The notes: generated by a model not told the origin, from the sequence alone. 64,000 bases of DNA from Schlesneria paludicola DSM 18645 (GCA_945869955.1 CAMBQP010000001.1:12745-76744), one strand, 5' to 3'; shown: positions 10,308-39,269, numbered from the stretch's first letter. Program-made: numbers and translations.

Positions 10308-10360
10308 GTCACCCGGGTTGCCAAGGTCACCAGCGACAAGAAGAACAACGGATATCAAAA

Positions 10361-21761: not shown

Positions 21762-23162
21762 TTACGAGATCAATTCCACCAGCGGTTTGGCATTGTCTTC
21801 AACCAGGTATTGCGGACGGCCGTTGAGGTCTGCGACCGTGGTGTTATCGACATCCAGGCCCAAGTGATGGAACAGCGTGGCGTAGACTTCACCGAATGAA
21901 ACCGGTCGGGAGATCGCTTCTCCGGCAATACGATCGGTGGCGCCGATCACCTGACCATGCCGCATCGAGCCCCCTGCCAGCATCGCGCAGTTCACTTGCG
22001 GCCAATGATCTCGACCCACAATCGAACTGATTTTCGGCGTCCGGCCAAATTCTCCCCAGATCACCACGGCACAATCGTCTGCCAAGCCGCGCAGATGCAG
22101 ATCTTCTACCAGTGCACTGACGCATTGATCGAAGACCGGAAAGTCCTCGGCCTCCCGCACGAAAATCGAGTTATTCGCGCGTCCTTCGGCGTTGGTTCCC
22201 CCATGCCAGTCCCACTTGCTGTAGTTGAGTGTGACGACGCGGACTCCGGCTTCAATCATGCGACGAGCCAGTAGCAAGCTTTGCGGAGCACGGGGAGCCC
22301 CATTCCCGTCCATCATGATCTTCGGGTCGCCAACCCCGTAACGAGCGATCGTACGGGGGTCTTCTTGCGACGGATCCAAAGCCTCGGCCAGTTTGGACGA
22401 GGTGAGCAATCCCATCGCCTGTTCCGTGAATGCATCCAGGCCCGTCATCATCGAGGTTTGATCGGCATCCCTGCGGAAGTGATCAAAGCTCTTTAGCAGT
22501 GACTGCCGGTCAGCCAGACGATCCAGTGTCACTCCATTCAGGACCATGTCGTCCCGAGTCTCGCCCAGCGGCTTAAACGGTGCATGGGCGGTCCCCAGAA
22601 ATCCAGGCCCCGGTTCGTTGTAAGGTCCATGCGTGCAGGTGTAGCACAGGCTAACATAGGGGGGAGATTCCCGCCGGGCTGGTCCCTGAACTTTGGAGAC
22701 CATCGTGCCGAACTGTGGCCACCCCCCCGACGGTTTCGACTTCTTCGGATCATGGCCATTGAAAACCTGGATGGCATCATGATCGTGCTGATTACCGACC
22801 AGCGAACGAATGACAGAGAATTTATCGGCTAGCTTTGCCAGACGAGGAAACGCCTCACAGATTTCGAAGCCAGGAACATTGGTGGCAATCGGTCGCCAAG
22901 GCCCCGCAATTTCCTTGGGAGCTTCCGGCTTCAGATCGAACATATCCTGATGCGGTGGCCCACCCACCAAGTAAATCATGATGACCGATTTCGGTGACTT
23001 TCGCCCGGAAATTGACTCGGCACGCAGCAGATCCGGCAAAGTCCACCCACCCGCCGTTCCCAGCGCCGCCAAGCTACCAATCCGCAACAGATCACGTCGC
23101 GAAACGCCGTCGCAGAAATCACGATGGGAAGTGGAACGCCCTGCAATCGTCAGCATCATCAA
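21762..23162 (-). CDS. DUF1501 domain-containing protein (Tat-type leader)
   Basis: FCDGVSRRDLL, GGPPHQDMFDLKP, LARRMIEAGV, WDWH, GEFGRTP, GRDHWP. Confidence 0.92.
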   Translation of the reverse strand: MMMLTIAGRSTSHRDFCDGVSRRDLLRIGSLAALGTAGGWTLPDLLRAESISGRKSPKSVIMIYLVGGPPHQDMFDLKPEAPKEIAGPWRPIATNVPGFEICEAFPRLAKLADKFSVIRSLVGNQHDHDAIQVFNGHDPKKSKPSGGWPQFGTMVSKVQGPARRESPPYVSLCYTCTHGPYNEPGPGFLGTAHAPFKPLGETRDDMVLNGVTLDRLADRQSLLKSFDHFRRDADQTSMMTGLDAFTEQAMGLLTSSKLAEALDPSQEDPRTIARYGVGDPKIMMDGNGAPRAPQSLLLARRMIEAGVRVVTLNYSKWDWHGGTNAEGRANNSIFVREAEDFPVFDQCVSALVEDLHLRGLADDCAVVIWGEFGRTPKISSIVGRDHWPQVNCAMLAGGSMRHGQVIGATDRIAGEAISRPVSFGEVYATLFHHLGLDVDNTTVADLNGRPQYLVEDNAKPLVELIS

Positions 23163-23603
23163 TCTCCTGCCGGAAACGATATTTGATTCGTGGTGACTTC
23201 TTGAACCTTTTATGCTGAATCGAGGATTTCAACCCCATTCGCAAAAAAGCACCTTGTTCATGGTATCAACAAAACCCAATGGGTGCCATTCTAACTGGGA
23301 TCACCATCCGCCCCCCCCGACATCCGTATTTCCCCGGCATTGCGACGTTGAACTTTCCTCCGCTTGGCGTTGAGTTCACCCAACCATGGATTCGTAACTC
23401 TGATGGTCAAGGTGACTTCGAATCTCGGTGGATTCAGAAAATCACGCCGAGACCACTGTTGCCACTTGGAATGAATCGCCTCGCGACCGATGCTCTGGTT
23501 GTGCCGGAACATTTGGATCCCTTCGCCACCCGGTACGTATGCCAATGGATCAAAGCCTGCAGGGACTTCAGGACGACCCGCCGCGTTTTCGTTGTCGCGA
23601 GAA

Positions 23604-24749
23604 TTATTGTGGGTCAACCAGGCGCCCTGAAAACAGGATGACATTGGTTTGTCGGTCCCTGATGAAGAATAAGAAGGGGTGGTCGGCTTGGAAGTGTTTT
23701 TCTACGATCGCCGCCTCCCTGGAAGGAAGGGAACCCTCGGCCCTTCCGGTCGAGACGGCGGCGGCTTCTGTACCCTCCTCATTGACTTCAATGAAGGTCT
23801 TGTGAACCACTTCAGAAATCTTCAGTGGTTTTTCACGATCGTCGCTGATCCCCCCCAAATCGGCATGGTCACTAAAAGCGAGTTGGGTCCCCATGTCACA
23901 CAGCACGGATGTCAGGTTAAATTCCGTTTCCATCTTGAAACGAGGAAGCGAGACCACAACAACCTTTTCGTGGCGTAATTCTTGCGTCACCCTTTGGAAG
24001 AGTTCTTGGGTGGCCCATTTGGCTTCTAATGCATCCAGGCCGTTATTCGCTCTTGGCAATACCACCAGCATTCCCAATTGCTGACCCAAATAAGGGAGAT
24101 CGAGGGCTTGAAACTCCTCGTTTTCAAAGTACTGATAGCCTGTAGTCCGGTGCATCGTCGGCACCGGGCGCGTGCTATGAGGGCCGTACCAGGACGCATC
24201 ATGAGTTGCATGCTTCGTAAAAAGCAATTCCCACCTCGCCTTGAAATAAATGGCATTCGTGAGAATCAGTCGAGTGTCGTCATGGATACTGCTCCGCTGA
24301 ATCAGATTCCGAATTTTCTGCCGGGTCTGCTCACTGACCCAATCATTGATCCTCGTCACAGCCTCGTCTGGTAGTCCCACAAAATCGACTTCCTGTAAGC
24401 CGCTCTGATAATCGGTTGCCAACGTCTGCTGAAATTCTGGGTTAAAATGGTAGCCCTGTTGTCCCCACAGTGCGCTGCTGCTGCAAAGTTCAAATCGTTG
24501 CGATCCTTGGAAATTGACCGACTTGATCCGCTGAGCGTAATAGTGGTTTTGTTGAGCGACACTTTCGGGTGCCCCGATGAGTTCCGTCAGCACCCTGCGT
24601 GTCTCACCTCTTGCTCCCACGGCACACATCGCCAGCGCGACCTCGATACTGAAGGGGGACAGAAACAAGTTCTGGCCCGCCGCTCGACCGGCAAGGTAGG
24701 CATTGAGGCGGGTCGCGAAAACGTTCGGGTTGGATACGGTGGTAAACAT
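23604..24749 (-). CDS. Serpin family protein (no signal peptide)
   Basis: NLFLSPFSI, INDWVSEQTRQKI, LTNAIYFKARW, LPRFK, hinge EVNEEGTEAAA, ADHPFLFFIRD, LFSGR; GGAG SD before the ATG at 24749. Confidence 0.95.
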   Translation of the reverse strand: MFTTVSNPNVFATRLNAYLAGRAAGQNLFLSPFSIEVALAMCAVGARGETRRVLTELIGAPESVAQQNHYYAQRIKSVNFQGSQRFELCSSSALWGQQGYHFNPEFQQTLATDYQSGLQEVDFVGLPDEAVTRINDWVSEQTRQKIRNLIQRSSIHDDTRLILTNAIYFKARWELLFTKHATHDASWYGPHSTRPVPTMHRTTGYQYFENEEFQALDLPYLGQQLGMLVVLPRANNGLDALEAKWATQELFQRVTQELRHEKVVVVSLPRFKMETEFNLTSVLCDMGTQLAFSDHADLGGISDDREKPLKISEVVHKTFIEVNEEGTEAAAVSTGRAEGSLPSREAAIVEKHFQADHPFLFFIRDRQTNVILFSGRLVDPQ

Positions 24750-25349
24750 GCAGTCGCTCCCTTGTTCAACGGTGAAAGCGGGCGTCATGCCACACAAAAA
24801 TCAGGCTGATCGATCATCCCCGTCAATCGGAAATCCCCTCCAACATCGCTGTTGTCGCTGGTCTGTCTTCGAATTCGGTCGGTTCCATTCTGATCAGGAC
24901 TTGAATGAGCAGCATCCGGAGACGGAATCGCCCACAATCCCCCTTGACCCTGGGGCTGCTGATGACTGCAAGATTGATGGGGCGGCAACATCCTTCGAGC
25001 CATTTTCGAGTTGGCTTGCTCCACATCGGGAAATGTCTCATTCGAACGCGGCGAGCATACCATCACGCTGTTATGCCCCGCTAGCAGCATTGATACATGG
25101 ACGCGCCCCGTGATGATCCAAATCAAATTCGGCCAAGTGTCTACCCGGAACTCGTCGGGTGATGTCTGAGGTGTGATCTGAAAGAAACCCGGGCACGACG
25201 GATCCATCACAGCAGAGAGCGTGCTGATCGTCGCGGAAATGTTATACTCGGAGCACAGCGCGAACAATTTGCCGGGACGGGTGTTCCGGCAACCCCCAAC
25301 TCACGTATGGGGGATTGTTGCAGAAAGAGGATGTTCCGAAGGATCACCA

Positions 25350-27038
25350 ATGACTGACTCCGTAAAGATAAATCAAATTGCCGTTGCTTGTGCGTTTTTC
25401 GTCCTCCTGCAGCTTCAGGCTTTCGCCGCCGAAGGTCCGGTGGCACGCTGGAAACTGATGGGCGACACGAAGAACTCGGTGCCGTCGAGTCCCGACGGAG
25501 TGAATCATGGGGTCAAGCTGGCCGCAAAACAGGCCACGTTCGACGGGCTCGGCAGCCACATCACGGTTCCGGCTAACGATGTTTTGAAGCTGGGAAAAGA
25601 AGACTTCACGATTTCCGTATGGGTCGACTCCAACGGCATCACCGACGATGACCAGGGGGACATCCTGAGCCAGTTCGATCCGAAAACGCGGACCGGGTTT
25701 CATCTGAGCCTACGCAGCAATTCCGGCGTCACACATTGCCAGCCCAACGAGCGGCAATTGCAATTTGGTATCGACGCAGGGACCGAACCCCTCTTGACCG
25801 ACGAAGGTCGGCCAGGGAATTGCGTCTTTGGGCAGTCGATGGCCGTCAATGAGGGAACGCTGTACGTTGGCACCTGCGAGCCGGGAAGCGACCAGGCGGG
25901 GCATGTTTATCGTTATGACGGTCCGAACAACTGGATCGATCTCGGGACACCGGACAAAGCGAATAGTATCACGAGCATGGCTGCGTTTCATGGCGACTTG
26001 TACGTCGGCTCGGGAAAATACCGGCTGGGTGGTTCGAAGCTCTCTGAGTCAGAAAACCCGCACCTCGGTGGACGAATTTTTCAATGGGTCGATGGCCAAT
26101 GGAAAATGATCGGCCATTTTCCTGAGATGGAAGCAGTCGGCGGCATGGTTGGCTTTCGCGGAAAGCTCTACGTCAGTTCGCTCTATAAACCCGCTGCGTT
26201 TTTCCGGTATGACGGAGACGGGAAATGGACTCCGCTGGAAGTCCCGAACGGCAAACGGGTCGAAGCCCTGGGTGTCTTTAACGATTACCTTTGGGCGACA
26301 GGTTACGACGAAGGCCACGTCTATCGCTACGACGGCACGGAATGGACCGATCTCGGCAACGTCGGCGAAAAAGAGAATACGCAGACGTACGCCTTCTCGA
26401 CTTATCAAGGGGCGCTTCAAGTCGCCACATGGCGCACGGGCAAGGTATTTGCCTGGCAGGCACCCACTCCGGCAGCGGCGAAGGATGTTCTCGGCGGGCA
26501 TTGGCAAGATCGCGGCCGGTTGGGGGAAGAAATGGAAGTGATGGGAATGCTGGTCCACAACGGCAGTCTCTACGCTGGAACCTTACCATTGGCCCAAATG
26601 TATCGGTATGACGGAGGGAAAACATGGACCCCGATCAAACAGCTTGATACGACCGATGTCGAGTACCGCCGCGTCTGGACGATGGCCCAGCATCAAGGGA
26701 AACTGTTCGCCACCACGTTACCTTCCGGCCATGTCTGGTCGCTGCAGACCGGAACTGTCGTGACTTGGGACCAATGGAAGCAAGTGGCGAATCACGACCG
26801 GTTTCATCTCGTCGCGCAACGGCACGGTGACACGTTGCGGCTATTCGTCGGTGGAAAAATGGTTGCAGAATCGAAAACCGCAAGGACGAGCGAATTAGAT
26901 CTTTCCACCGATCACCCTTGGCAGATCGGTGCGGGGAGTGGCGATTTCTTCCACGGTTCGCTGGCCGACGTACAGATTTTCCGCCGCGCGTTGACCGCCG
27001 AGGAAATTCGAGTCCTGGGCCAGGCTACACGGGATTGA
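25350..27038 (+). CDS. Secreted protein with a split LamG/concanavalin-A-like domain enclosing a beta-propeller
   Basis: Signal peptide; LamG halves (ATFDGLGSHITVP...DFTISVWV and LFVGGK...WQIGAG...FFHGSLADVQIFRRALTAEEI) flank repeated GxLYVG...YRYDG blades. Confidence 0.8.
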   Translation: MTDSVKINQIAVACAFFVLLQLQAFAAEGPVARWKLMGDTKNSVPSSPDGVNHGVKLAAKQATFDGLGSHITVPANDVLKLGKEDFTISVWVDSNGITDDDQGDILSQFDPKTRTGFHLSLRSNSGVTHCQPNERQLQFGIDAGTEPLLTDEGRPGNCVFGQSMAVNEGTLYVGTCEPGSDQAGHVYRYDGPNNWIDLGTPDKANSITSMAAFHGDLYVGSGKYRLGGSKLSESENPHLGGRIFQWVDGQWKMIGHFPEMEAVGGMVGFRGKLYVSSLYKPAAFFRYDGDGKWTPLEVPNGKRVEALGVFNDYLWATGYDEGHVYRYDGTEWTDLGNVGEKENTQTYAFSTYQGALQVATWRTGKVFAWQAPTPAAAKDVLGGHWQDRGRLGEEMEVMGMLVHNGSLYAGTLPLAQMYRYDGGKTWTPIKQLDTTDVEYRRVWTMAQHQGKLFATTLPSGHVWSLQTGTVVTWDQWKQVANHDRFHLVAQRHGDTLRLFVGGKMVAESKTARTSELDLSTDHPWQIGAGSGDFFHGSLADVQIFRRALTAEEIRVLGQATRD

Positions 27039-27085
27039 GGCCGATCCCCGTTGAGCACTGTCCCTGTGTTCGCCACGTCTACTCG

Positions 27086-27371
27086 GCGAAAATGCCGGTA
27101 AGGCGATTTTAACGCAAAGACGCCAGGACGCAGGGACGCCAGGAATACGAAAACAGCAAATGGGATTTCGCCCTTCTCTCTTCCTCTTTCTTGCGTCTCT
27201 GCGGCTTGACGCCATTGCGTTAAATTTTCCGCTCATTTCCTGTGACCCAATCGTGGATCTATGAGGGCGATCTGATCGCGAAAAGGGGGTTGCGGATTTT
27301 GCATGGATCGGGATTTTCGCTTCTGCACAAAAATCGGTAAGTGAATTCCGGTTCGGAGAGATGGGCAAGAC
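27086..27371. repeat. Copy 1 of the hairpin-containing island repeat (core hairpin 27107-27225)
   Basis: Aligns by eye with 34761-35054 and 35719-35939. Left arm TTAACGCAAAGACGCCAGGACGCAGGGACGCCAGGA at 27109-27144; complementary right arm at 27188-27223. Confidence 0.95.
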
Positions 27372-27697
27372 TGTGGTTGAAGACGATTTCTTGGGTCAAG
27401 ACTTTCTGTGAGGATCTGGAGAATCCGAGTTGCTGAGCATCCGCGTCAAGAAGGACAAAAGTTCGATCAGAATCGGACTCATCAAGCTGCAGACGAGAAT
27501 TCGGCAGTGAGCGTGCGCGCGATGAGGGTCAAAGTGGCTCAACAGTTTTGGTGACCTTCCCACAGTAGCTCTCACGGCGTCAGCTCTTCCATCAGCCGTG
27601 CAGGCGGGGTTTCTGGAGTCTCTTGATGTTGAGGTTCCCGGACCGGATAATCCGGCGGCAGCGTTCTCTTGTAACGAACTGAAACAGGACTGGCCAC

Positions 27698-28756
27698 ATG
27701 GCAGCCGATCAGCATCTCATCGGGTACCCCGACGGGTTTTGCCTATTTGAGAGCGGGTCTCTTTTGCCGGAGGCATGGCAGTTGGCATCCGGTCAAGGGC
27801 CCGTTTGGATCTTTAATCCCGCCATCATCGAGGCCACGGACGGTTATTTGCTCGCTTATCGCGTCGTCCTACACGACGGTCGACGACAGATGGCAGTCTG
27901 CCGACTGGGCCGCAATCTTCAAGTCCGGCCCCAGTCCGCGATTCCACTGAGCGACTTTCTGGTTTTGCCTGCCGGGTGGTATCCGGAACAGGGGCGGAAT
28001 TGGTTTGCCGACCCCCGCTTGATTCGCTGGCAGGGCCGGCTGCTGGTCCACTGGAATTCCGGGATGCACAAGCCGGCGAATCACCAGTTTGTTCAAGAGC
28101 TGGATTCCGAAACACTGACCCCGATCGGAACTTCACGAGAATTGCGGCTGGTTGCCGGGCAGGCCCCAATCGAAAAGAACTGGGGCCTTTTCGGGTGGGG
28201 TGACGAGTTGTACGGTCTCTATTCGCCCGCCCCGCTTTGCATTATTCGACTGGAAAACGACGATGGTCGCATCTGGTCATTCGCCAAGGTGCAAACCCAT
28301 CACTCCCATCTCGCCGGTTATATCAAGCATTTCGGGGCGCTGCGCGGAGGATCGCCACCAGTCTTGCAGGGGGGGCAGCTCATCGCGTTTTGTCATTCTC
28401 AGTCTCAAACCTCGCAAGGAATTCGGTATCATCCCAGCGCGGTCAGGTTCGCTGGTCCTCCTGATTTCAAGCCCAACGCATACCTTGCCCAGCCGTTGGA
28501 GCTACCAAATCCGTTCGCGGATCGATTGATTCAGCCGCGGTTAAATCCACAGGTCGCTGAGGTTATCTATCCATCGGGAGCTGTCTTCGCGAAGGGACGT
28601 TGGCTGGTGAGTTATGGAATCAATGACGAGCATTGTGCGCTGATGACGTTCGATTCCTTCGAGCTTGATCGTCATTTGCGGCCAGCCAGAGGAGCCACGA
28701 GGGCGTGGATCGGATCAGTCCTTCGGCGAAACCTTCCCGGATGGTTTGCGGGCTGA
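27698..28756 (+). CDS. Five-bladed beta-propeller glycan enzyme (GH130/GT91-like fold)
   Basis: Motifs FNPAI, DPR, EKNW, LRGG, FCH, IYPSG and SYGIND; located in a glycosyltransferase cluster. The family call comes from motif memory only. Confidence 0.65.
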   Translation: MAADQHLIGYPDGFCLFESGSLLPEAWQLASGQGPVWIFNPAIIEATDGYLLAYRVVLHDGRRQMAVCRLGRNLQVRPQSAIPLSDFLVLPAGWYPEQGRNWFADPRLIRWQGRLLVHWNSGMHKPANHQFVQELDSETLTPIGTSRELRLVAGQAPIEKNWGLFGWGDELYGLYSPAPLCIIRLENDDGRIWSFAKVQTHHSHLAGYIKHFGALRGGSPPVLQGGQLIAFCHSQSQTSQGIRYHPSAVRFAGPPDFKPNAYLAQPLELPNPFADRLIQPRLNPQVAEVIYPSGAVFAKGRWLVSYGINDEHCALMTFDSFELDRHLRPARGATRAWIGSVLRRNLPGWFAG

Positions 28757-28990
28757 GATCTGCGGCGCCGGGAAACCCCAATCAATGCGGTCATCAATGT
28801 CGAATCGGACTCGCGAGCAGCGTTGGATGGCGGTTTCCCGCGAGACGGCATTGTTGGGAAACGGGAAGAGAGAAACGGAGATTCGCGTCGTCGTGACCAG
28901 AAAAACCGTTCACAGTCGGACTCGATCCCCTGCCCGTTTTCGCGATGGCCAAATTGAGCAACAGTTCAAGCGATACCGACAGCCACGCGG

Positions 28991-30109
28991 TCATTGTTCC
29001 GCAAACGCCGCCAACAGTTGCTGAATCACCTCGACCGGAGGGATTTCCGTGATACAGATCGGGGACGCATGCACGCACTTCCAGCCACATTCATAACAGT
29101 CGAGGGGGCGGTTTAACCATCTCTGTCGCGGGCTTTTCGACCAGGGGGCAACATTGCCGAAATTCCCCCCGCCAATCAGCACCACAATCGGTTGATCGAG
29201 TGCCGTCGCAATATGGGCTGGTCCCGATTCCGGCGCAAGCAGGATCCGTACTGAGGCGATTTCCTGAACCAAATCGGGAATTGTTGCAGGGAATCGCCAA
29301 GTGACCGAGTTCAGCCCCGCCGCTTCATTCGCGCAGTCCCATACACGGATGTCGGTGCCCGGGGGGACACAGAATTCGACCGGCATCGGATGTTGTGCAA
29401 TAAACCCCTGGATCACTGTCGCCAGCAGTTCAGGAGGGTATTGGCGAATTTCATCACTGGCTTGGGGACAGACCAGCAGTACGGTGCGAACCTCAGTGGC
29501 TCGTACCGTGAGTCGCGAATGGATTTGCTCAAGAGGGACCTCAAATCCCCGAACAGAGCTGACGACACGTCGGTGTGCTTCGAGCTCTTGACAGTGGCCA
29601 ATCAGGACTTCGGGATACGGAGACAAAACTGCGTCAGGAAAGGGGACCGCTGCCTTTCCGAGGTAGGATTCCTTTTTCTCGCAAGCATAACGGACTGAGG
29701 CGGGTAACAGTCGCATCATGGCATGCAGATAATCGGAGGGATGGTGTCGCAAACAGACGAGCTCATCACAGGAAAGGCCAGAAAAACGGGAATGGTACTT
29801 CCAGAGAAACGTGACAAATTCAGGCCAGAACGAAATACATGAGATGGGTAACACGAGGAAATCGGTGCGAGGGAACTCAGCCCGGTACAAAGATTCCGCA
29901 ATCGGCGAGATGACCAGCAATGACTGATCCTCACCCACGCGATCAATCAACAATCGAATCGCCCCAACCGCCAGCACGGCATCGCCAATTCGATCCATCT
30001 TGATGATCGCCAGGCGGTAGTGCTTTCTGCGGCGGCACAGGACTTGGTTCCACAAGAACGCAATCCTGATCAGTAGCCAATATTTCCAAGGCCCAATTTC
30101 CAGACTCAT
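28991..30109 (-). CDS. GT9 glycosyltransferase (ADP-heptose:LPS heptosyltransferase-like)
   Basis: IIKMDRIGDAV and ESGPAHIATAL motifs; the ATG at 30109 overlaps the upstream TGA (ATGA coupling). Confidence 0.88.
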   Translation of the reverse strand: MSLEIGPWKYWLLIRIAFLWNQVLCRRRKHYRLAIIKMDRIGDAVLAVGAIRLLIDRVGEDQSLLVISPIAESLYRAEFPRTDFLVLPISCISFWPEFVTFLWKYHSRFSGLSCDELVCLRHHPSDYLHAMMRLLPASVRYACEKKESYLGKAAVPFPDAVLSPYPEVLIGHCQELEAHRRVVSSVRGFEVPLEQIHSRLTVRATEVRTVLLVCPQASDEIRQYPPELLATVIQGFIAQHPMPVEFCVPPGTDIRVWDCANEAAGLNSVTWRFPATIPDLVQEIASVRILLAPESGPAHIATALDQPIVVLIGGGNFGNVAPWSKSPRQRWLNRPLDCYECGWKCVHASPICITEIPPVEVIQQLLAAFAEQ

Positions 30110-31287
30110 TCGATTTCTTTTCCTGCACTGACGGACGCCTCGGTCAGCCAATCTCTGACAGACGCCGCCGCGATTTCTGCGAGAGATTCGAGTCGATCAA
30201 GGGAAATCGTCGCGGCAGCGGAGACCCCCGAAATGATCTCGGAAACTTCGGAGACGCTGTTGACGCGTGGCAAACCGAATTGATCTGCCAAACCGGTCAA
30301 CTTGCCACTCCGGGCGACAATCAGAACTTTGGCACCGATCCAGACCGCCAAAAGTGCCCCGTGATAGCGGCTGCTGATCACCTTCGCAGGCCACTTTAAA
30401 AAGTCTACCGGACTTGTCGAACACGTCGACTCCCTATCAAGATTGAAAATCGTTAACCGCTGACGCAGGCTTTCAGAAAATCGCCGCCACCAGTCATTTT
30501 CCATACCTGGCAATAATCGGGGATCCTGTACCAACCAGAACGCTCGTTCCGCAGGAAGTCCCTGCATGAGCACCGGCAGGGCATCGATCACATTTTCTGT
30601 TGGCTTTTCAAAATTGAACAGGAAACCAATTGCGTGGGGATCGGGATTTCGTTCCTGTCCCGCGAATCGTTCCCGAAACAGAATATTCGCAAGATCGGCG
30701 GCGCTGGTCGTTCGTCCTGGATTTGCCTCGTCCAACCACTTTGCCGATCGTTCATCGCAAGCCCAACAATGCCGTACCGACATGAATGCCCGGCGGAATT
30801 GTGGTCGCTGCATGACGAACGAGTTTTCGACACCAATTCCCAAAAAATCCATCGGTTTGGCGAGCACCTGACACATGAACCACTCCTGATCCAATTGGCA
30901 TTCAAAAAATCGGCCGCTGTCCGTTTGGAAGGGGGTGCCACCCAGTCCGAGCCAGCAATCTGCCGATCGAATTGCGTTCCAACGCGCATCGATCGTATAG
31001 GGGAGCCAGGTGATTTCCGGATAGCGTTTGGCCAGCAATTCCCAATTTTCCGGTACACAACAGGTGAATCCCACCCTGCGTCGTTGACGGCCAATTTCTC
31101 GCAAAAATCCTAATAGCATGAAATCGTCACCGGCATTTCCGGCACCCCAGAATGCATGGCCGATGTGGACTTTTAAGGGGTGATTCCCCCTTCGTGCCGG
31201 TTGACGAAGGTGGTACGACATCAGTTGTCTGACGCGAATATTCAGCCGAAACCGCCAACGTTCAAGAATGGACTGCATGTTCAGCAC
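30106..31287 (-). CDS. Polysaccharide pyruvyl transferase family protein
   Basis: GAGNAGDDFML, GLGGTPFQ, GIGVE, ADLA, SSRYHG motifs; translationally coupled between the GT4 and GT9 genes. Confidence 0.8.
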   Translation of the reverse strand: MLNMQSILERWRFRLNIRVRQLMSYHLRQPARRGNHPLKVHIGHAFWGAGNAGDDFMLLGFLREIGRQRRRVGFTCCVPENWELLAKRYPEITWLPYTIDARWNAIRSADCWLGLGGTPFQTDSGRFFECQLDQEWFMCQVLAKPMDFLGIGVENSFVMQRPQFRRAFMSVRHCWACDERSAKWLDEANPGRTTSAADLANILFRERFAGQERNPDPHAIGFLFNFEKPTENVIDALPVLMQGLPAERAFWLVQDPRLLPGMENDWWRRFSESLRQRLTIFNLDRESTCSTSPVDFLKWPAKVISSRYHGALLAVWIGAKVLIVARSGKLTGLADQFGLPRVNSVSEVSEIISGVSAAATISLDRLESLAEIAAASVRDWLTEASVSAGKEIE

Positions 31288-32626
31288 CTTCGGTATCGGG
31301 CGTTTCCATCGACGGCGAATCCACGGATTCTGCGAGTACCCGACACTTTTGCAAAAATTGTCGGGTACTGTCTCGCCAACTGATGACGGCCGAAGGGTCC
31401 CAGTCGCTCACTGCAGCGAATGCCCCCGTTTGTTCACGATCGATGACGATCTGAGCGAGCGTTGAGGGGGAGCCAATGTCGAAATAGAGGCAGGATTCTC
31501 CCCCGACTTCGCGATGGACAGGGATATCACTGGCAAGCACTGGCAGACCGTTCCGGAGACCCTCGATCAGTGGTAAGCCAAATCCTTCGGCGTGCGAGGA
31601 AAAAACCAGTGCTCGTGCATGCTGGTAACAGTACGCCAGATCGGCATCGCTGGCGTTGGTGAGCAGATGCAGTTCATGTCCAAAACGGGGGTGATGATGG
31701 ATGCGATCTAACAGATCTCCACACAACCACCCCGGCCGACCGACGATGCAAAGGCGTGTTTGGGGACAACGGTCCCAGATCTGCTCAAAGGCATCCAGCA
31801 AATAGTTGTGGTTCTTGCGAGGTTCCAGTGTCCCCACTGATAAATACGGAGGGGGACCGGGGGTCTGGGCAAAGACTTGACGAGCGGAGTCGCTGATCTG
31901 GTCCGTGGAGGGGATACCCGAGGCGATCAAGTCGAGGTCCGAACCGAGCCGAAAGAAATCGATTTTGACCGCTTCACCCGCCCTATCTCCCAAGAGTTTC
32001 TTCGCGTACTTTCGCAATTCGTTTTGCACCGTTTGCGAGATCACCATCAGCACGTCGGCATGCTTCAAGTAATGGTCCAGGTATTGTTGAAAAATCGATG
32101 TCAGGCCACTGGGAAAAAACTGCGGATGGGTGATGGGGAGCAGGTCGTAAACGACAATTCCTGTTTGTGCTCTCTGTTGATGGGCTTGTTGCAACAACCT
32201 CCTCAGTGATGGAGTCCACCAGACATCCAGCGAAATGACCAGGTCATCCGACTGAAAATGAATCGCCGAACTCTGCCAGGCGAGCGATTCCTGCTCCACG
32301 ATCGAAGAGATCGATTGAAGGGTGCCACGTCGGAGGAATCGCAGAAGTCGTTTGAGCAAGCTGTTGCCGCTGTGAAACGATTCCAGCGTCCGGGTCACCG
32401 GTTTTTGCGGATTCCCTGCCTCAATACGCCGCTCCAATGCCGCCAGCCAGCGTGTACCATCGTAACAACGCCAGCGGTGTTTGATGATCGGAATGGATGT
32501 CACCCCCAGTTCGGCTCCGACGGCAATCGCTTGCCGAGCCAGATTCCGGGAAACGCGCTGGATTCCCGAGTTATTCCCCGAAACAAGCGTATTCCCACAT
32601 TCCAACAGGATTCGACCAACGTTCAT
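31262..32626 (-). CDS. GT4 (glycosyltransferase family 1 domain) protein, mannosyltransferase-like
   Basis: SGIQRV, VYDLLPITHPQFF, VGTLEPRKNH, EGFGLPLIE, ASDIPVHREV. Confidence 0.92.
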   Translation of the reverse strand: MNVGRILLECGNTLVSGNNSGIQRVSRNLARQAIAVGAELGVTSIPIIKHRWRCYDGTRWLAALERRIEAGNPQKPVTRTLESFHSGNSLLKRLLRFLRRGTLQSISSIVEQESLAWQSSAIHFQSDDLVISLDVWWTPSLRRLLQQAHQQRAQTGIVVYDLLPITHPQFFPSGLTSIFQQYLDHYLKHADVLMVISQTVQNELRKYAKKLLGDRAGEAVKIDFFRLGSDLDLIASGIPSTDQISDSARQVFAQTPGPPPYLSVGTLEPRKNHNYLLDAFEQIWDRCPQTRLCIVGRPGWLCGDLLDRIHHHPRFGHELHLLTNASDADLAYCYQHARALVFSSHAEGFGLPLIEGLRNGLPVLASDIPVHREVGGESCLYFDIGSPSTLAQIVIDREQTGAFAAVSDWDPSAVISWRDSTRQFLQKCRVLAESVDSPSMETPDTEGAEHAVHS

Positions 32627-33164
32627 GAAAGCCCTTGCCTCACGGAATTCGCGAAAAAAAAAGAATTCAATTGAAGAGGGGATTTTATAGGGCCAAGGGT
32701 GATGGCCGATATGGGCGTCCTCAACACCCCTGTTGGATGCCTTGCATCAATCGGAGTTTTACGGGGGGATCGCATCAAATTCAATGCAGGTCTTTTTTGC
32801 TGGGAATTGTTGGATTTCCGCAATCTTCTGGGCTTTTTGAAAAAAAGCGAAGGCAAAGAGAAGGCCATTCAATTCATGATGGGTGGTTGCTAACATGCCA
32901 CGCTGTGTTGTTGGATGAGCGTGGTTCGAAGTTCGGGTGTGTGATGTCTCTTGATGATACCGATTTTGGCATGCTTCAGAGGCGTGTCAATAATTTTTTG
33001 CGAGAATACGGCAACCAACAGGGATCAACGGTGCTCCGTCACCATCCGGAAGTTTTCGCCATCAAGTCGACCAACTACTGCAATCTTCGCTACCTGATGT
33101 GTCCTCGAGGCGAACCAGACATCATGGAGCATGATCTGGGAAATCTGCCCAAGGAACTCTTTCA

Positions 33165-33194
33165 AAAGATCCTCGGTGAAAGATCCTCGGTGAA
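33165..33194. repeat. Perfect 14-bp tandem duplication (AAAGATCCTCGGTG x2)
   Basis: Copies at 33165-33178 and 33179-33192, followed by AA. Confidence 0.9.
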
Positions 33195-33294
33195 GTCAAG
33201 TTTTTCTCAAATTCCGGCGGGTTCCACGGATTTGGTGGCCCGTTACCGTTCGACACGAACGAAGTGAAAACAATGGTTTTTGCGTCTTTGCCGT

Positions 33295-33326
33295 CAGTGG
33301 TCTGGCAAAACAGTGGTCTGGCAAAA
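33295..33326. repeat. Perfect 16-bp tandem duplication (CAGTGGTCTGGCAAAA x2)
   Basis: Copies at 33295-33310 and 33311-33326. Confidence 0.9.
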
Positions 33327-33406
33327 AGATTCCGCGATTCCCATAATTTTGCCTCAAACCCGTTTCTTTTGATGGAATCGGTTACAGCACAAGCAGGATT
33401 CCCCAA

Positions 33407-34513
33407 TTGATGAACAGGCCACTGCGGATCGGTATTGATGGTACGCTGTTTCGAGAGCAACCTCGGGGGCACTCGCTGTATGCCATGCAGCTGTTTCATG
33501 AGCTCCCCTCATTTCTCCCGGATGCCGAGTTTTTTCTCTACACCCCATCACCCATAGAGCTCACGAAGTTTCCCGGCAAGCTCACGCAACGGGTTGATTC
33601 AAGCTGGTTTGCGAAGTCCCCGGTTGTCTGGCAAAAACTGGCTGAAGGGAAGCTTTGCCGAGCCGATGCACTCGATGTCTTTTGGAGCCCTTATGTCTTT
33701 TTGCCGAAACTCCCTCGGGATCTTCCTACTGCTGTGACGCTCTACGATTTTGTGCATGAGGTGACACCCGATTCTTTCCATTGGCTGCATGCCCTCGCGT
33801 TTCGTCTGTTCTTCAAACGAGACCTGAAACGGGCTCAATCGATCATTACGATTTCGCGCGGAACACAACAGAGAATTCGTCAGCAATTTGGCCGTGAATC
33901 GATTGTCGTGCTGCCGGGGTTGGATGCGCGGTTCCAAAAGCCAACCGATGCACAACGGGCAGACGTTCTCCAAGAATATGGCCTTGATCGTCCCTACCTG
34001 CTGAATGTGGCGACATGGGATCCTCGTAAAAACGTCGCGACGCTGATCAAGGCCTTTTTGGCGATGAAAGAGGCGAATGAATTACCGGATTATCAATTGG
34101 TACTGGTCGGACGGAAAGAAAGCCGATTTGCCGAGATCGAGCAGTTGTTGCAGCGCGATGGCGGTCAGCACCTTCGGCACCTCGGGTACATCTCCGATGA
34201 TCACTTGCCGGCCCTGTACGGGGGAGCGAAGCTGTTTGTGTTTCCTTCGTTATACGAAGGGTACGGTATGCCCGCGATGGAGGCCCGCGCTTGCGGAACT
34301 CGCGTTGTGACCTCCGATCTCCCGGAAATCCGTGAAGCGGGGGGCGATGATTCAATTTACATCGAGCCAACCGCAGCAGGGATTCGGGCAGGAATCCTGG
34401 AAGGAATGGCTCGCAATTCACAAGGACCGCTCCCACTTCCTGTGGCTCCCAGTTGGCATCAAAGTGCCCGGATTCTCGCAGCTGAGCTTCAGCGTCTCGC
34501 GGGCCGTATTTGA
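33407..34513 (+). CDS. GT4 glycosyltransferase (mannosyltransferase-like)
   Basis: RIGIDG, TLYDF, VATWDPRKN, FPSLYEGYGMPAMEA, SDLPEIRE. Confidence 0.92.
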   Translation: MMNRPLRIGIDGTLFREQPRGHSLYAMQLFHELPSFLPDAEFFLYTPSPIELTKFPGKLTQRVDSSWFAKSPVVWQKLAEGKLCRADALDVFWSPYVFLPKLPRDLPTAVTLYDFVHEVTPDSFHWLHALAFRLFFKRDLKRAQSIITISRGTQQRIRQQFGRESIVVLPGLDARFQKPTDAQRADVLQEYGLDRPYLLNVATWDPRKNVATLIKAFLAMKEANELPDYQLVLVGRKESRFAEIEQLLQRDGGQHLRHLGYISDDHLPALYGGAKLFVFPSLYEGYGMPAMEARACGTRVVTSDLPEIREAGGDDSIYIEPTAAGIRAGILEGMARNSQGPLPLPVAPSWHQSARILAAELQRLAGRI

Positions 34514-34602
34514 GTTTGGTAGTAAGAATCAAAATGCTGTCAGGCACCCTGATCGACGAAAAAAAACAAGGGGAAAAACACGAGATACTGGAATGATTTT
34601 GG

Positions 34603-34624
34603 TTGGCCGATAGGGTACGGCCAA
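34603..34624 (+). terminator. 7-bp stem hairpin downstream of the GT4 gene
   Basis: TTGGCCG-N8-CGGCCAA; no clear U-tract. Confidence 0.3.
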
Positions 34625-34660
34625 TAACAGGTGTGTGCGGAGCGAAAGCCACTCAAGCAG

Positions 34661-35054
34661 CCGCGAAATCACACGTTTTTCGTGATTTCGCGGCCGGAAT
34701 TCACGAGAGAACGCGATGAAGTCGCAGCGACGACGACGACGTCCCGCCCCCCTCTTTGATAGCGAAAACGCCGGTAAGGCGATTTTAACGCAAAGACGCC
34801 AGGACGCAGGGACGCCAGGACTACCAAAACAGAAAATGGGATTTCGCCCTTCTCTCTTCCTCTTTTCTTGCGTCTCTGCGGCTTGGCGCCATTGCGTTAA
34901 ATTTTTCGCTCATTTCCTGCGACCTGATCGTCGATCCATGGGGGCGCGATCTGATCGTGAAAAGGGGGTTGCGGATTTTGAATGGGGCTGGCTCGATTTT
35001 CGCCTCCTCACCAAAATCGGTGGATGAATTCCGGTACGGAGAGAGGGGCAAGAC
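34661..35054. repeat. Copy 2 (longest) of the island repeat: 12-bp inverted repeat at 34661-34693 plus core hairpin 34783-34902
   Basis: CCGCGAAATCAC-N9-GTGATTTCGCGG; left arm 34785-34820, right arm 34865-34900. Its left flank is shared with copy 3 and its right flank with copy 1. Confidence 0.95.
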
Positions 35055-35265
35055 CAACACTCGTCAGGTTCGGGCCTTTATGCGCATTGCAATCAGGGCA
35101 GGCGAGAGCCAGGTTTTCCTCCACATCTTCACCCCCATGCTGCCTGGCGCGGATGTGTTCGATGTGAAACCAGAAAAATGCTGCTGCGGACTGCGGTAAC
35201 AAACAGTATTCGCATCGATTATTGGCTCTCTGCCGAACGAATTCGCGTAATGCGTTGTTCATCAT
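35008..35265 (-). pseudogene. HNH endonuclease, C-terminally truncated by repeat copy 2
   Basis: CEYC...HIEHI...ENLALACPDCNAHKG core in residues 1-70; the last 15 codons are read from the repeat, which begins at 35054. Confidence 0.8.
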
Positions 35266-35531
35266 TCGACCGCTTGTCGTTTCAGAGAGGCGCGCGCTTT
35301 TGATTGAAGGATCGTGACGAAGTGAAAGACCGATCGGTAGCTTTCGTATTCAACTTGTTCTTCCGCTGTGAGCAGGCCTTCGTTCGCTTGATCGGCCAAG
35401 TAATCCAAACGCAATTGCGCCGTTGGAGCAGATTGGAAACTGGCGACTCGCGCGGCAACTTCGGGCGTCAAGCATTCCATAAACGGGTCGAGAACACTGT
35501 TGGTGATTTCGAAGGCGGAGAGCGATGGCAT
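35262..35531 (-). CDS. Small acidic helical protein coupled to the HNH gene (putative antitoxin)
   Basis: 89 aa; AGGAAA SD; ATGA overlap with the HNH start; LDYLADQANEGLLTAEEQVEY resembles antitoxin-like partners of HNH toxins. Confidence 0.7.
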   Translation of the reverse strand: MPSLSAFEITNSVLDPFMECLTPEVAARVASFQSAPTAQLRLDYLADQANEGLLTAEEQVEYESYRSVFHFVTILQSKARASLKRQAVE

Positions 35532-35626: not shown

Positions 35627-35939
35627 GAAATCATCTGTTTTTCGTGATTTCGCCGCCGGAAATCGCAAGAGGATGCGATGAAGTCGCAACGACGACCACG
35701 ACTCTTCGCGTCGTTGATAGCGAAAATGCCGGTGAGTCGATTTTAACGCAAAGACGCCAGGACGCAGGGACGCCAGGAATACCAAAACGGAAAACAGGGT
35801 TTTGTCTCTTCCTCGGATTCTTCCTTGAGTCCCTGAGGCTTGGCGACTTGGCGTTAAATTTTCCGCTCATTTCCTGTGACCCAATCGTGGATCCATAGGG
35901 GCGATCCGATCGCGAAAAAGGGGAATACGGATTTTGAAT
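35627..35939. repeat. Copy 3 of the island repeat (core hairpin 35741-35859)
   Basis: Left arm 35743-35778 is identical to copies 1 and 2; right arm 35822-35857 has diverged but is still complementary. Confidence 0.95.
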
Positions 35940-35954
35940 TGATGTGATGATGTC

Positions 35955-37085
35955 TCACGTGCCTCGCGGCGGCGATCTAAAGCCGCTGAATAGTTCTTGG
36001 ATCTCCACTCTGGATGGCGCGATCATTTTTTTGTCGTCTATCCAATAATGGAAATCTTGTTGAATGACGTGATATACGTTGGCGGAAACTCTGTAAATGT
36101 CCATGAGACATGAGTTGAATAGAAGGATGGCTTCGCACTTTCCATGCTTTTCAATGAGGGAAGCGAGTGCGATCTCATCGCCATTGTTGGATTCGCTGTG
36201 CAACAAACGGCCGCCATACATGAACATTTGAATGATTTGACGTCGCGTCGCGGTGGTTTCTTGAGCAAACACGGGCGGCGAGTCAATTAACTTAACGAAG
36301 ACGTCTCTCTCCCGTTCAATCTACAACCGCTTTAATTCCTCACCAGTGTGATCGAGGTAGGCGTCGCAGGCTTTCAGTAGTAGTTTGTCGCCGGCATGCA
36401 ATTGTCGAAAGTAAGCAAGAACGCAAAGTGTTTCCGCATCGTTCGGGAAAATCGCCTCAAGCAATTCTACTTCGCGGGTTTCTTGAGTAGCAGACGCGAT
36501 GGATTTCGGAGAGTCATACCATTCGCTGTGATAAATCCGACGCACCACATCGAGAAACTGAGAGATTGTATTTGCTTTTTTTAACGTCCATTCGGCTTCG
36601 TTTTTGGGAGACGTCGGCCCCAGTTGAATAACGCTTTTGGGATCGCCGAAAATGACCGTGAACTCCTGCCCGTTAACATGACGCATAATATCAATCATTG
36701 TCCATGGAGTTCCGGTTTCATCTTCGATGTAGCCGTACGGTGCGCTGAGGATGTGGAATCCAGTCTTTTGTTCAGTTGCATACGAATGAAATTGTTTTAG
36801 GTCATCGGTTGACGCTTCGACGAACGCGTGGCGGTATCCGATTAAATCAGATTTAAAGCTGGTTTTGCTTAAAGATATTGTTTTTACCGTTTCGTCAAAC
36901 CCACGTGGATGAAATCGAGAATCGTCAGCATTCAAGATTGACAAAACGTCAGCAATTTCGGTCGTCGAAAGCTTTTCCCAGTCTAGACAAAGATGACGAT
37001 TGAACAATGGAAGTGGATTTTCTTTTCGGCGGTCAAAACATTGAACCGCAAGTCGAACGTAGGGCAGATTTTTTGGAGTTGTCAT
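35955..37085 (-). pseudogene. AT-rich hypothetical gene interrupted by one in-frame TAG (36321-36323)
   Basis: ORFs 36321..37196 and 35955..36272 are in the same frame and joined by 16 open codons after the TAG (…EELKRL*IERERDVFVKLIDSPPVFAQ…); ATG at 37085. Confidence 0.75.
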
Positions 37086-37292
37086 CTGAATCAGATTCCA
37101 TTCGCTTAACTGGGACTCAAGTTTAGGCCATCCGGGAAGGCAAATTCGCCACGAACCAGTCCAGTACTTGATTGTTTTGCACTGTCGCAATCCCATTTTG
37201 AGTTGACTCTTTGCATGTCGAATTCATCAGACAAGAGAGGATTGTGAAGTTTTGTTATCCTTTCCATTGGAGACAAGGGGACACTAGAATTA

Positions 37293-37856
37293 TTGGCCCT
37301 GAATCCAGCGATCAGCATTTGCGTCCTGACCAAACCGATGTACTCGCGTGATCCACGTTTGCACTTGGATTTTCGGCTTCGCGATCCATCCGGATTGCTG
37401 CTGACAAACGATTTACAAATTCATCTTTTGCAGTTGTCAAAACTGAGCAAGACAGTGCAAAATGTGTCTCAGGCCAGTTCGATTGAGAAATGGGCCTATT
37501 TTCTGGTAAACGCCGCCAATCTGTCGTTGAATGGTATCGAGGGATTGTTTCCCGAAGCCGAATTCAGCGAAGCGGCAGGAGTCCTGGACATGATTTCACA
37601 TAACCCTGAACAACGGCAATTGTATGATGCACGCCTAAAGCTACAGCTCGACGAAGCCGCACGGCTGGAAGGGGCGCTCAATCAAGGCCGTGAGGAAGGC
37701 CGTGCGGAAGGGGAGTTGTTTGGGCAGATCATGCTGCTGCAAGAGCTTTTGGGTATCGCCGAGTTAACCAGGGACGAATTGACAAACCTCAGCGAAGTGC
37801 AATTGTCCGAAGTGACTGAGGAATTCAAGCGTCGGTTGAGAAATCGCAGCGTCTAA
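37293..37856 (+). pseudogene. 5'-truncated Rpn family (PD-(D/E)XK nuclease family transposase, PDDEXK_2) gene
   Basis: PAISICVL, LQIHLLQL, IEKWAYFL, LYDAR and the GREEGRAEG tail are present. The N-terminal catalytic region is absent: an in-frame TGA lies at 37245 and the upstream residues do not resemble the family. Confidence 0.8.
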
Positions 37857-38011
37857 ATGAGATCAATGCGAGGCTGGAACAGTTCAGAAACCCCGATTGG
37901 AGTGGTCCGGGCACCACGTGACAAATCGTTCGTCGTTCATGCTGGAAGCCGCGATAGGGGTGCCGATGTCAGCCCCGGCGGCAACGGGGTGCGGGCAGTC
38001 TGTCATTCGAT

Positions 38012-38039
38012 TCTGCTCGGCTCAGTCTGCTCGGCTCAG
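38012..38039. repeat. Perfect 14-bp tandem duplication (TCTGCTCGGCTCAG x2)
   Basis: Copies at 38012-38025 and 38026-38039, intergenic. Confidence 0.9.
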
Positions 38040-38237
38040 ATTGTCGTGAGATGGCCAGCGACGGTTGTGAATCAATTTCCGAAATCCTGCGTCAACTCAA
38101 TCTAAAAATCCAAACCCGCCTGCTGATGGTGATGCTGATCACCTTGGGGTAAACGATCACGATCTCTCTCGTTTCTCCCCATCATTTTCTTTTCGACAAC
38201 CCCCGGTCGGACCTGGCGATTTTGCTGACCCGTAACT

Positions 38238-39269
38238 TCAGTCGTTGGACTTTGCCACCGGTGGTGAAGGCCTCGTTGAGGGAGCGTATTTTTTGGACGG
38301 GACGAATTTTCTGGGTGTTGCCTCATCGCCCCCCTTCGGTGTCTCGGAAGTTTTCTCATTCGTCGGTTCACCGAGAACGGGGACATTCACTTTGGACTCA
38401 ATCAGTCCCCCTTTTTGCGTTTCCGCGACGATCCCGGCGGACGATTCTTCGCGAATGTCCACTAACGGTGCCGAGGCAGGCCGCTCGCCGAGATGTTTGT
38501 TTCCATCAAGCCGTGGTGTCGGCTCCAGCCCGCTCGATCGTTCCACAGACGTGGTCCCCGCAGCTTTCGTTTGAGCCGCTTTCGAGGCCGAGTTTGACGC
38601 CAATTCCGGGATTTTCAAGACCATCCCGGATCGTAGGTCATTCGCGTCCCTGAGCTGGTCTCGATTGGCTTCGAACAGGTCCTGAAAACGGTTGGAATTG
38701 CCCAAGTGTTTCGCGGCAATCGACGAGAGCGATTCTCCTTTCAGGACGAGATGCGTTCGCTCTTTCTGCAGATTTTCCCCGCTCGTCCGTCCGGAAGTTC
38801 CCGGTTTACTGCTCGAGATCGAATTTCCAGTCTCGGTTTTTCCCGCCGAAAGTGATCGATCCCCCGGTAGTCGATCCCCCGGTACGGGGATTGGTGCGAG
38901 TTCCTGAACGTCGCTGTCGCTGTCGGTCAGTTGCGATAAAGGCTGTCCCCCTCCCGAGGAATTTTTGCCGCCGAACGCTTGTTCAGCAGAACTCAAATAG
39001 GACCCACCGTGATCCTCGTCGGACGCCAACTCGGATTCTTTACGGTCTGCGACGGAACGGATACGAACCCGGTCACCCGCTTCGACGGCCTCAACCCCCT
39101 TCAGATACGGGCGAGTTGTCCGTTCGGCGATACGATCATCCAGTTCCTGAGCATGTTGCAATCGAGGTGTTTCCACTCGTTCTCGCGTTTCGTTGCGAAA
39201 GAACAGGGCGGCGCAGGCTCCGATGAGCAGCACCCCGAGTGCCAAACCAATTCGTTGATCCTGGTGCAT
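38238..39269 (-). CDS. Membrane-anchored LysM peptidoglycan-binding protein
   Basis: AGGAGG SD; N-terminal TM (IGLALGVLLIGACAALFF); LysM HLVLKGESLSSIAAKHLG...LFEANRD...LRSGMVLKIP; disordered flanks. Confidence 0.9.
   Translation of the reverse strand: MHQDQRIGLALGVLLIGACAALFFRNETRERVETPRLQHAQELDDRIAERTTRPYLKGVEAVEAGDRVRIRSVADRKESELASDEDHGGSYLSSAEQAFGGKNSSGGGQPLSQLTDSDSDVQELAPIPVPGDRLPGDRSLSAGKTETGNSISSSKPGTSGRTSGENLQKERTHLVLKGESLSSIAAKHLGNSNRFQDLFEANRDQLRDANDLRSGMVLKIPELASNSASKAAQTKAAGTTSVERSSGLEPTPRLDGNKHLGERPASAPLVDIREESSAGIVAETQKGGLIESKVNVPVLGEPTNEKTSETPKGGDEATPRKFVPSKKYAPSTRPSPPVAKSND

Follow-up and report, generated by a model that had tools for sequence, protein, structure and literature searches.

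Between a LamG-domain gene and a LysM-domain gene of Schlesneria paludicola DSM 18645 lies an islet of five intact glycan genes bracketed by direct repeats. It was found in a stretch of 64,000 nucleotides (nt), hereafter the window (G000:C1:12745-76744), which belongs to a 77-kb contig of an assembly of 394 contigs that is 95% complete. Comparison with relatives indicates that the islet (27391-34659) is a real, functional and accessory glycosyltransferase set in a rearrangement-prone hot spot. It is a population-level polymorphism; a working on/off switch is not demonstrated. The bracketing units appear to originate from dispersed hairpins resembling repetitive extragenic palindromic (REP) elements, and it is fairly probable that general homologous recombination between them has, over evolutionary time, added and removed the DNA that they enclose. 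If this is true, the locus is a well-resolved natural case of REP-like hairpins providing portable homology in a planctomycete, through which accessory surface-glycan genes are gained, lost and swapped among close relatives, and of the same hairpins being fragile sites at which deletions arise.

The repeats are composite units of about 330-400 bp, built from up to three modules. Module A measures 85 nt and contains a hairpin of 13 bp, module B is an imperfect hairpin of about 115 nt (DNA fold z-scores of -2.7 to -5.3) and module C a stretch of about 170 nt. Copy 1 (27086-27390, plus strand) contains the module B hairpin (about 27110-27222) and a full-length module C, without module A. Copy 2 (34660-35054, plus strand) contains the module A hairpin at 34660-34745, the module B hairpin at 34786-34899 and, up to 35054, a module C shortened by a 304-bp deletion. 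Copy 3 (35627-35939, plus strand) combines module A (35627-35702), module B and a module C of half length. Units are 81-92% alike, with perfect runs of 41-51 nt, and all lie in the same orientation, in the order unit, cargo, unit. The cargo always stands after module C and before module A; in every haplotype module A is missing from the copy adjacent to LamG and present in later copies. The unit ends in CGATTTC, after which about 25-40 nt are weakly similar in all copies. A search against Rfam 15 matched no family anywhere in the window.

With a repeat finder, the core of copy 1 extends over 27086-27371, beginning 48 nt past the LamG stop codon, and that of copy 2 over 34762-35054; the likeness between the two copies continues for some 20-40 nt on the right-hand side and ends at about 27390-27413. 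The start-to-start spacing of the direct copies is 7,676 bp between copies 1 and 2, as claimed in an earlier note on this DNA, and 958 bp between copies 2 and 3. The same note described about 290 bp of near-identical sequence in copies 1 and 2. The length is accurate (286-293 bp), while the degree of likeness was overstated, since identity is 89% and no perfect run exceeds 51 nt.

The content and layout that the earlier note gave for the interval between copies 1 and 2, namely glycan genes only, are confirmed for five intact genes; a radical-SAM remnant among them had escaped notice. The first gene (27698-28756, plus strand) encodes a distant GH130-like beta-propeller protein whose own Pfam match is weak (E 0.0025). 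A sequence-only search of the PDB with this single protein was uninformative, whereas its family profile succeeded and matched the beta-1,2-mannobiose phosphorylase 7fip (5.8e-10); PF04041 is matched by 15 of its 21 homologues. A three-gene operon occupies the minus strand. Its first gene, GT4a (31262-32626), encodes a GT4 glycosyltransferase (PF00534, 1e-21), the second (30106-31287) a member of the polysaccharide pyruvyl-transferase family and the last (28991-30151) a heptosyltransferase-like GT9 enzyme (PF01075, 4e-8). The pyruvyl transferase itself has no Pfam match at E 0.01; it aligns over its full length with TIGR03609 CsaB (3.4e-8), at 33 bits against a cut-off of 213, and its homologues at 39-44% identity carry PF04230. 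According to the gene calls in L076, neighbouring genes of the operon share 4 and 17 nt, and the three are therefore translationally coupled. GT4b (33407-34513, plus strand) is a divergent GT4 glycosyltransferase gene (PF00534, 2e-25).

Upstream of GT4b, the N-terminal 90 or so codons of a radical-SAM/SPASM gene (32915-33181, plus strand) match the start of a 361-amino-acid (aa) gene on G007:C117. The more distant genomes G007 and G022 possess the full radical-SAM gene, two FkbM methyltransferase genes and then a GT4 gene (L070, corresponding to G007:C117, 678-5740). The remnant marks a 3.5-kb deletion with respect to these two genomes, by which the window is without the rest of the radical-SAM gene and both methyltransferase genes. 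GT4b is 88-89% identical in nucleotides to the GT4 genes of G007 and G022, whose LamG proteins are only about 73% identical in amino acids, which suggests lateral exchange within the genus.

When the window is compared with the lineage of L087, all five islet genes are intact and free of stop codons, and their pN/pS ratios range from 0.13 to 0.28. Their G+C content is 53-58%, against 54.5% for the genome. These values indicate that the islet genes are functional, evolve under purifying selection and have a native composition. A recent foreign origin of the islet was considered and is ruled out by G+C content and third-position G+C (GC3), both of which match the genome. No homologue of the pyruvyl-transferase gene was found among 24 genomes of the same genus, and a search of genome contigs for related loci with the pyruvyl transferase as query returned nothing.

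In the domain annotation between the repeats, no genes for a priming transferase, a flippase, a polymerase, an exporter (ABC or Wza) or sugar-nucleotide synthesis are present. Given the absence of the first four of these functions, the islet would only be able to modify a glycan made elsewhere. A self-contained locus for a lipopolysaccharide (LPS) O-antigen or a capsule is ruled out, since the islet holds only the GH130-like gene, GT9, the pyruvyl transferase, two GT4 genes and the radical-SAM remnant. For the same reason, the proposal in the earlier note that LPS or capsule chemistry is switched as a single cassette must be regarded as conjecture, and any effect of the islet on the surface glycan is putative. 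A close parallel is an exopolysaccharide locus of Prosthecobacter fluviatilis (L063) that, like the islet, has adjoining and overlapping PS_pyruv_trans and Glyco_transf_9 genes; its pyruvyl transferase is 41% identical to that of the window, and GT4 and GT2 genes lie nearby. Unlike the islet, which has transferases only, the Prosthecobacter locus also includes a Bac_transf priming transferase, a UDP-glucose dehydrogenase and methyltransferases. No defence family was recognized by PADLOC inside the islet, and only a generic HNH domain matched PtuB.

About 45 contigs were read, about 25 of them as DNA, and six haplotypes of the LamG-LysM interval were distinguished among relatives and metagenome contigs. 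LamG orthologues with 94-99% amino acid identity adjoin the repeat in every haplotype, and the LysM gene adjoins the variable interval in G014, L087, L090 and L092. The arrangement of the window, haplotype H1, is found in full in contigs ERZ27280231 and L106, collinear at 98-99.96%; it is found in part in five GROS21 contigs that run from GT4b to an AT-rich gene and in several contigs that run from copy 1 into the islet. In haplotype H2, represented by the sister species G014 at 90-92% nucleotide identity, there is no islet and only one unit (B plus C). Collinearity covers 21064-27390 and 37296-41918, and between these blocks G014 has only 1,038 bp, which include the N-terminus of an intact 300-aa PD-(D/E)XK gene. 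Haplotype H4 (L090, a fourth lineage) resembles H2 but has 1.07 kb more and an intact PD-(D/E)XK gene of 326 aa; it is collinear up to 27371 and again from 37296.

In haplotype H3 (L087-L089; 24 contigs were read, sharing this neighbourhood), the window is matched at 97.1% from 25203 to 34713, after which collinearity jumps to 37921. Copy 1, the islet and the module A hairpin of copy 2 are kept; missing are modules B and C of copy 2, the HNH gene pair and copy 3, together with the AT-rich gene and the PD-(D/E)XK remnant. In haplotype H5 (L092, 99.65%), positions 32259-34821 are missing, from the N-terminus of GT4a through the left arm of the module B hairpin in copy 2, and 304 bp that are not in the window follow module C of copy 2, so that the HNH gene is intact at 116 aa. 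Haplotype H6 is a scaffold, L107, in which a LamG region at 98.8% is followed by a module B hairpin of the L090 type, ten Ns, and then module C of copy 2 with the 304 bp, a stretch with 100% identity to L092. L107 suggests a close strain without the islet, provided that the N-gapped join is right. Presence or absence of the lamG-to-lysM interval had been put forward earlier as a check, and its outcome is mixed: the islet is missing in G014 and L090, as an accessory module should be, and is kept in L087, where the copy-2 hairpin is gone.

Evidence for recombination among the units is provided by their borders and by their internal composition. Three different cargoes begin where the unit ends: copy 1 is followed by the islet, copy 2 (in L092) by the HNH segment, and the single unit of G014 and L090 by the stretch called segment X. 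The single copy of G014 is a mosaic. Its left flank is of copy-1 type (80-92% identity). In the loop and right arm it agrees at 94% with copy 3 and at only 66% with the positional counterpart, copy 1, and in module C it is nearest to copy 2 of L092 (87%, with 71% for copy 1). The loops of copies 1 and 2 are themselves 95% alike. An orthologue set in flanks of about 90% identity thus differs by 34% over 80 nt, where a paralogue differs by 6%, and this pattern shows that crossing-over or conversion has taken place among the copies. The G014 copy as a simple fusion of copy 1 and copy 2 was also considered and rejected; the 25-40 nt past CGATTTC are common to all copies, so that this flank is uninformative.

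Exchange has also affected the islet genes themselves. Between the window and L087, synonymous divergence amounts to 0.092 for LamG, 0.070 for the GH130-like gene and 0.044 for GT4b, and falls to 0.026-0.030 for the GT9, pyruvyl-transferase and GT4a genes, a third of the LamG value. The low divergence of the operon (28991-32626) suggests a later exchange between lineages, with ends that lie inside the islet and not at the repeats.

Loop-out deletion and Campbell-type integration between direct repeats are general RecA-dependent routes by which islets are lost and gained. Units of 0.3-0.4 kb with perfect runs of 41-51 nt could serve as substrates for homologous recombination of the RecA type, and it is from the chimeric units and the shared border that we infer such a mechanism here. 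In cis, recombination between two units would produce a loop-out deletion. With DNA from a related strain, it would lead either to single-crossover insertion of a looped-out circle or to allele replacement by a double crossover. The hairpins probably attract illegitimate deletions in addition. Two histories are conceivable for the difference between G014 and the window: the branch of G014 may have lost 8.6 kb when copies 1 and 3 recombined and looped out the DNA between them, or the branch of the window may have received a single-crossover insertion; the same pattern would be expected from both. The absence of module A from the first copy and its presence in later copies would fit single-crossover (Campbell-type) integration at a chromosomal B plus C site. 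Known RecA-dependent, repeat-flanked islets have direct repeats of 0.3-0.4 kb, presence or absence of the islet, a break at the repeat and a chimeric surviving copy in common with this locus. The locus differs from them in that the G014 event spans copies 1 to 3 and not 1 to 2, that one border is non-homologous and that no recombinant has been caught within a population.

Several observations weigh against homologous recombination between the units. Among the 45 or so contigs read, neither a clean fused junction of copies 1 and 2 nor an amplification is seen; the fused junction that the earlier note suggested looking for has a single candidate, the N-gapped scaffold L107, whose hairpin is of a third type and would not be the product of a simple crossover between copies 1 and 2. 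Two exact-pattern scans of metagenome contigs of the Joint Genome Institute (JGI), one for the L107-type hairpin and one for the LamG flank, unit and HNH side in succession, returned nothing. Three independent deletions each have one end in copy 2, at 34711/34712 in L087 (34712-37920 removed), at 34821/34822 in L092 (32259-34821 removed) and at 35054/35055 in the window (304 bp removed), and all three of these within-group variants are illegitimate deletions and not repeat-to-repeat events. In L087, the best-sampled lineage, the islet is retained although the hairpin of copy 2 and its rightward extension are gone, and it therefore exists and persists unbracketed. The right border with respect to G014 and L090 (37296) lies inside the Rpn-like PD-(D/E)XK gene, not at a repeat, so that at least one additional, non-homologous event is needed, probably the arrival of the 46%-G+C gene at 35955-37196. 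The difference between G014 and the window corresponds to the interval from copy 1 to copy 3 (8.6 kb), not to the 7,676-bp unit from copy 1 to copy 2. Gene conversion alone could also yield chimeric copies. Finally, gain and loss are not distinguished by the outgroups G007, G003, G020 and G023, since their LamG gene lies elsewhere, beside DUF1501 genes in another context and with no repeat adjoining. The idea in the earlier note that homologous recombination could delete or amplify the whole module thus agrees with the accessory nature of the islet, the chimeric units and the break at the repeat, while excision or amplification of the 7,676-bp unit itself is not seen.

The interpretation of the units depends in part on the behaviour of their modules elsewhere in the genome. 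Searches with nhmmer reveal module B at 32 loci and module A at 27 loci, whereas module C is limited to the three local copies and was not found outside this locus. Module B is about equally numerous in the sister species G014, and the other 31 genomes of the genus have few copies or none. Its loci on contigs C34 and C51 are collinear with G014 straight through the element, the assembly of G014 breaks in the element at the C8 locus, which is otherwise collinear, and the 4.2-kb distance between two more copies, upstream on C1, is preserved in G014. All five loci compared are therefore occupied and syntenic. A role of module B as a general cassette border is ruled out, the three other loci tested being collinear with G014 across the element. 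A miniature inverted-repeat transposable element (MITE) was likewise considered; inverted arms are present, but the occupancy and synteny of all five loci in G014 rule it out, and the TTAA at both ends of module B is indistinguishable from the palindrome itself.

The consensus fold of module B has arms of about 35 nt with 26 pairs and a loop of about 60 nt, with little two-sided covariation. Over the 32 loci, 89% of pair cells are paired, with 558 Watson-Crick, 72 G.U and 22 A.C cells, although the relatedness of the copies prevents these counts from being a clean statistic. The bias towards G.U suggests that the structure functions on a single strand, in RNA or in single-stranded DNA. The hairpin is followed by an AAATTTT tail, and large open reading frames (ORFs) rarely overlap module A or B loci. 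In a crude ORF analysis, module B lies on the same strand as the neighbouring gene in 16 cases and on the opposite strand in 12, with no clear bias. The A and B elements are probably hairpins that act at the RNA level downstream of genes.

Six matches to Y1 transposases are present in the genome. One ORF resembles the REP-associated tyrosine transposases (RAYTs): it encodes 233 aa with an HWH motif (G000:C42:30961-31671), and NF047646, aligned over its full length, is its best match with 54.7 bits (cut-off 80), IS200 scoring 16.6 bits. A module B copy is located 33 nt 3' of its stop codon, and the upstream side has no clear copy (L111, G000:C42:30400-32200, 571-1410). A Y1 pseudogene on C117 (L112, G000:C117:5500-6900) has three in-frame TGA codons and a module A copy about 95 nt downstream. 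Module A also occurs in series in the same orientation, three times on G000:C268 (509-582, 3952-4029 and 7440-7514) and twice on G000:C173 (759-834 and 2524-2599). These series, spaced by 1.8-3.5 kb on small contigs, may be other repeat-partitioned regions.

Modules A and B look like dispersed families of the REP type or of REP doublets forming hairpins (REPINs), linked to RAYT-like Y1 transposase genes, a picture that fits published descriptions (PMC3337134, PMC3116915). Like REP/REPIN elements (PMC3116915, PMC3337134, PMC3733652), module B has two inverted arms around a spacer that form a long hairpin, it has 32 old intergenic copies that are syntenic between species, its arms carry recurring GACGC/GCGTC motifs, and one copy follows by 33 nt a gene that best matches NF047646. 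REPs are reported downstream of genes, probably as RNA hairpins, and such repeats have been reported in Planctomycetes (PMC3733652). The resemblance is incomplete. REP palindromes are tagged at one end by GTAG or CGTC (PMC3733652); in module B no GTAG is seen, the RAYT-like gene falls below the curated cut-off (54.7 against 80 bits) with a B copy on one side only, mobility is not observed at the five loci compared, all of which are conserved in G014, and at the present locus module B forms part of a larger unit, together with modules A and C. The B spacer, of about 60 nt, is also longer than is usual for REPINs. The modules would represent a previously undescribed REPIN-like family with a candidate RAYT partner in Schlesneria, and six haplotypes of the LamG-LysM interval are on hand for study.

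This behaviour gives some weight to a rather unlikely alternative, in which the repeats are bystanders, namely REP-like terminator or 3'-untranslated-region hairpins, the islet and its neighbours having been moved by illegitimate recombination or hairpin-stimulated deletion and the local copies having arisen by duplication or conversion. Module B is stable and syntenic elsewhere, the G.U bias and the AAATTTT tail are those expected of an element acting as RNA, and the illegitimate nature of all three variants in the islet-bearing group, together with a right border against G014 that falls inside a gene, would be natural consequences. Chance placement does not, however, predict that the left border against G014 and L090 lies at the unit end in both lineages, that three different cargoes start directly after module C, that module A is missing from the first copy only, or that the G014 copy is a three-way chimera. 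An assembly artefact, with repeat-induced misjoins producing the bracketing in a metagenome-assembled genome, is so improbable as to be negligible. It could be suspected from the number of contigs (394) and from the fact that five independent metagenome contigs of related origin (L086, L095, L108-L110) end inside the copy-1 hairpin, at window positions 27123-27187; these ends may stem from collapsed repeats or from genuine structural heterogeneity in the assembly graphs. Against it, assemblies from at least eight samples are collinear across copies 1-3 and the islet at 98-99.96%, the collinear contigs, which come from separate samples and assemblers, being L076, L078, L106, L079-L083, L092-L094 and L087-L089.

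The units could also be sites of a dedicated system for moving cassettes, either integron-like with an unknown recombinase or based on a RAYT-type Y1 transposase acting on module B, which is improbable. As in integron arrays and in attC clusters that have no integron integrase (CALINs; PMC4889954), imperfect palindromes on one strand and in one orientation separate blocks of accessory genes, and the block between copies 2 and 3 is of cassette size, with a pair of small nuclease genes on the opposite strand. The right end of the hairpin, GTTAAAT, fits the R' box consensus GTTRRRY, and the R'' box, TTTTAAC, agrees with RYYYAAC at six of seven positions, these consensus sequences being short enough for chance matches. 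A strand-biased hairpin would be compatible with recognition as single-stranded DNA, and RAYT-like genes are present in the genome, one of them beside a B copy. CALINs by definition have no IntI, and a missing integrase alone does not exclude one. In this 95%-complete genome, the best match to the integron integrase profile TIGR02249 reaches 78.9 bits against a cut-off of 265 and looks XerC/D-like, and the 77-kb contig C1 has no match. Both the single-sequence DNA folds and the consensus fold of module B display only symmetric 1x1, 3x3 and 5x5 internal loops, without bulged bases. For arrays of attC sites, the clustering rule is a spacing below 4 kb on the same strand (PMC4889954); copies 2 and 3, at 958 bp, fall within this distance, copies 1 and 2, at 7,676 bp, fall outside it, and the other 29 B loci either stand alone on their contigs or have spacings above 4 kb. 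Beyond the hairpin itself, about 170 nt on its downstream side and 85 nt on its upstream side are conserved between units, unlike in attC sites of CALINs, and a five-gene cargo of 7.3 kb with a spacing of 7.7 kb is beyond the usual range of integron cassettes.

Identity as an attC site is opposed by the missing integrase, the symmetric and bulge-free hairpin, the dispersed and syntenic copies, the conservation well beyond the hairpin and the lack of an Rfam match, and the units are accordingly not regarded as attC sites. The site-specific, attC-like recombination envisaged in the earlier note finds no support, on the same grounds, 32 dispersed loci with stable synteny elsewhere being foreign to it. 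A dedicated system in general is opposed in addition by the restriction of module C to this locus and by the fact that no circular or empty-site product is seen. More doubtful still is the narrower proposal that the A-B-C units beside LamG are sites of an undescribed planctomycete cassette system with no integron integrase, served by a RAYT-type or other recombinase; such a system would shuttle multi-gene cargo like the 7.3-kb islet into and out of a fixed hot spot next to LamG. At present, the locus reveals no new kind of mobile system and no demonstrated phase switch of the cell surface.

The conserved left anchor, the LamG-domain gene (25221-27038, plus strand; Pfam Laminin_G_3, 4e-17), has a second unstable side in the L087 lineage, where synteny also breaks just upstream, at 25203, with DUF1485/MlrC and CstA genes in place of the serpin and DUF1501 genes; LamG is thus flanked by variable borders on both sides. 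Between copies 2 and 3, an HNH endonuclease gene cut to 85 aa and its 89-aa partner (35008-35531, minus strand; PF01844, 1e-11) form the cargo. Copy 2 appears to cut the HNH gene because the window lacks, at 35054/35055, the 304 bp that L092 and L107 have between module C of copy 2 and this gene, which encodes 116 aa when they are present, as in L092; in L107 the same extra segment is at the end of the contig. To the right, the variable interval is closed by the PD-(D/E)XK (Rpn-like) C-terminal remnant (37293-37856, plus strand; PF12784, 1e-13) and by the conserved right anchor, the LysM-domain gene (38238-39269, minus strand; PF01476). The PD-(D/E)XK gene is intact in G014 (300 aa; L062, 4056-4958) and in L090 (326 aa; 10119-11099), and wholly gone in L087. 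Next to copy 3, the AT-rich gene of unknown function (35955-37196, minus strand), recognized by its composition (46% G+C), is split by an amber codon. This codon (TAG on the minus strand, 36321-36323) is common to the window and the ERZ27280231 contig and is TGG in five other assemblies (L092, L106 and L079-L082), the gene of L092 being intact with 376 aa. The split is therefore a real, strain-specific nonsense change and not a sequencing error.

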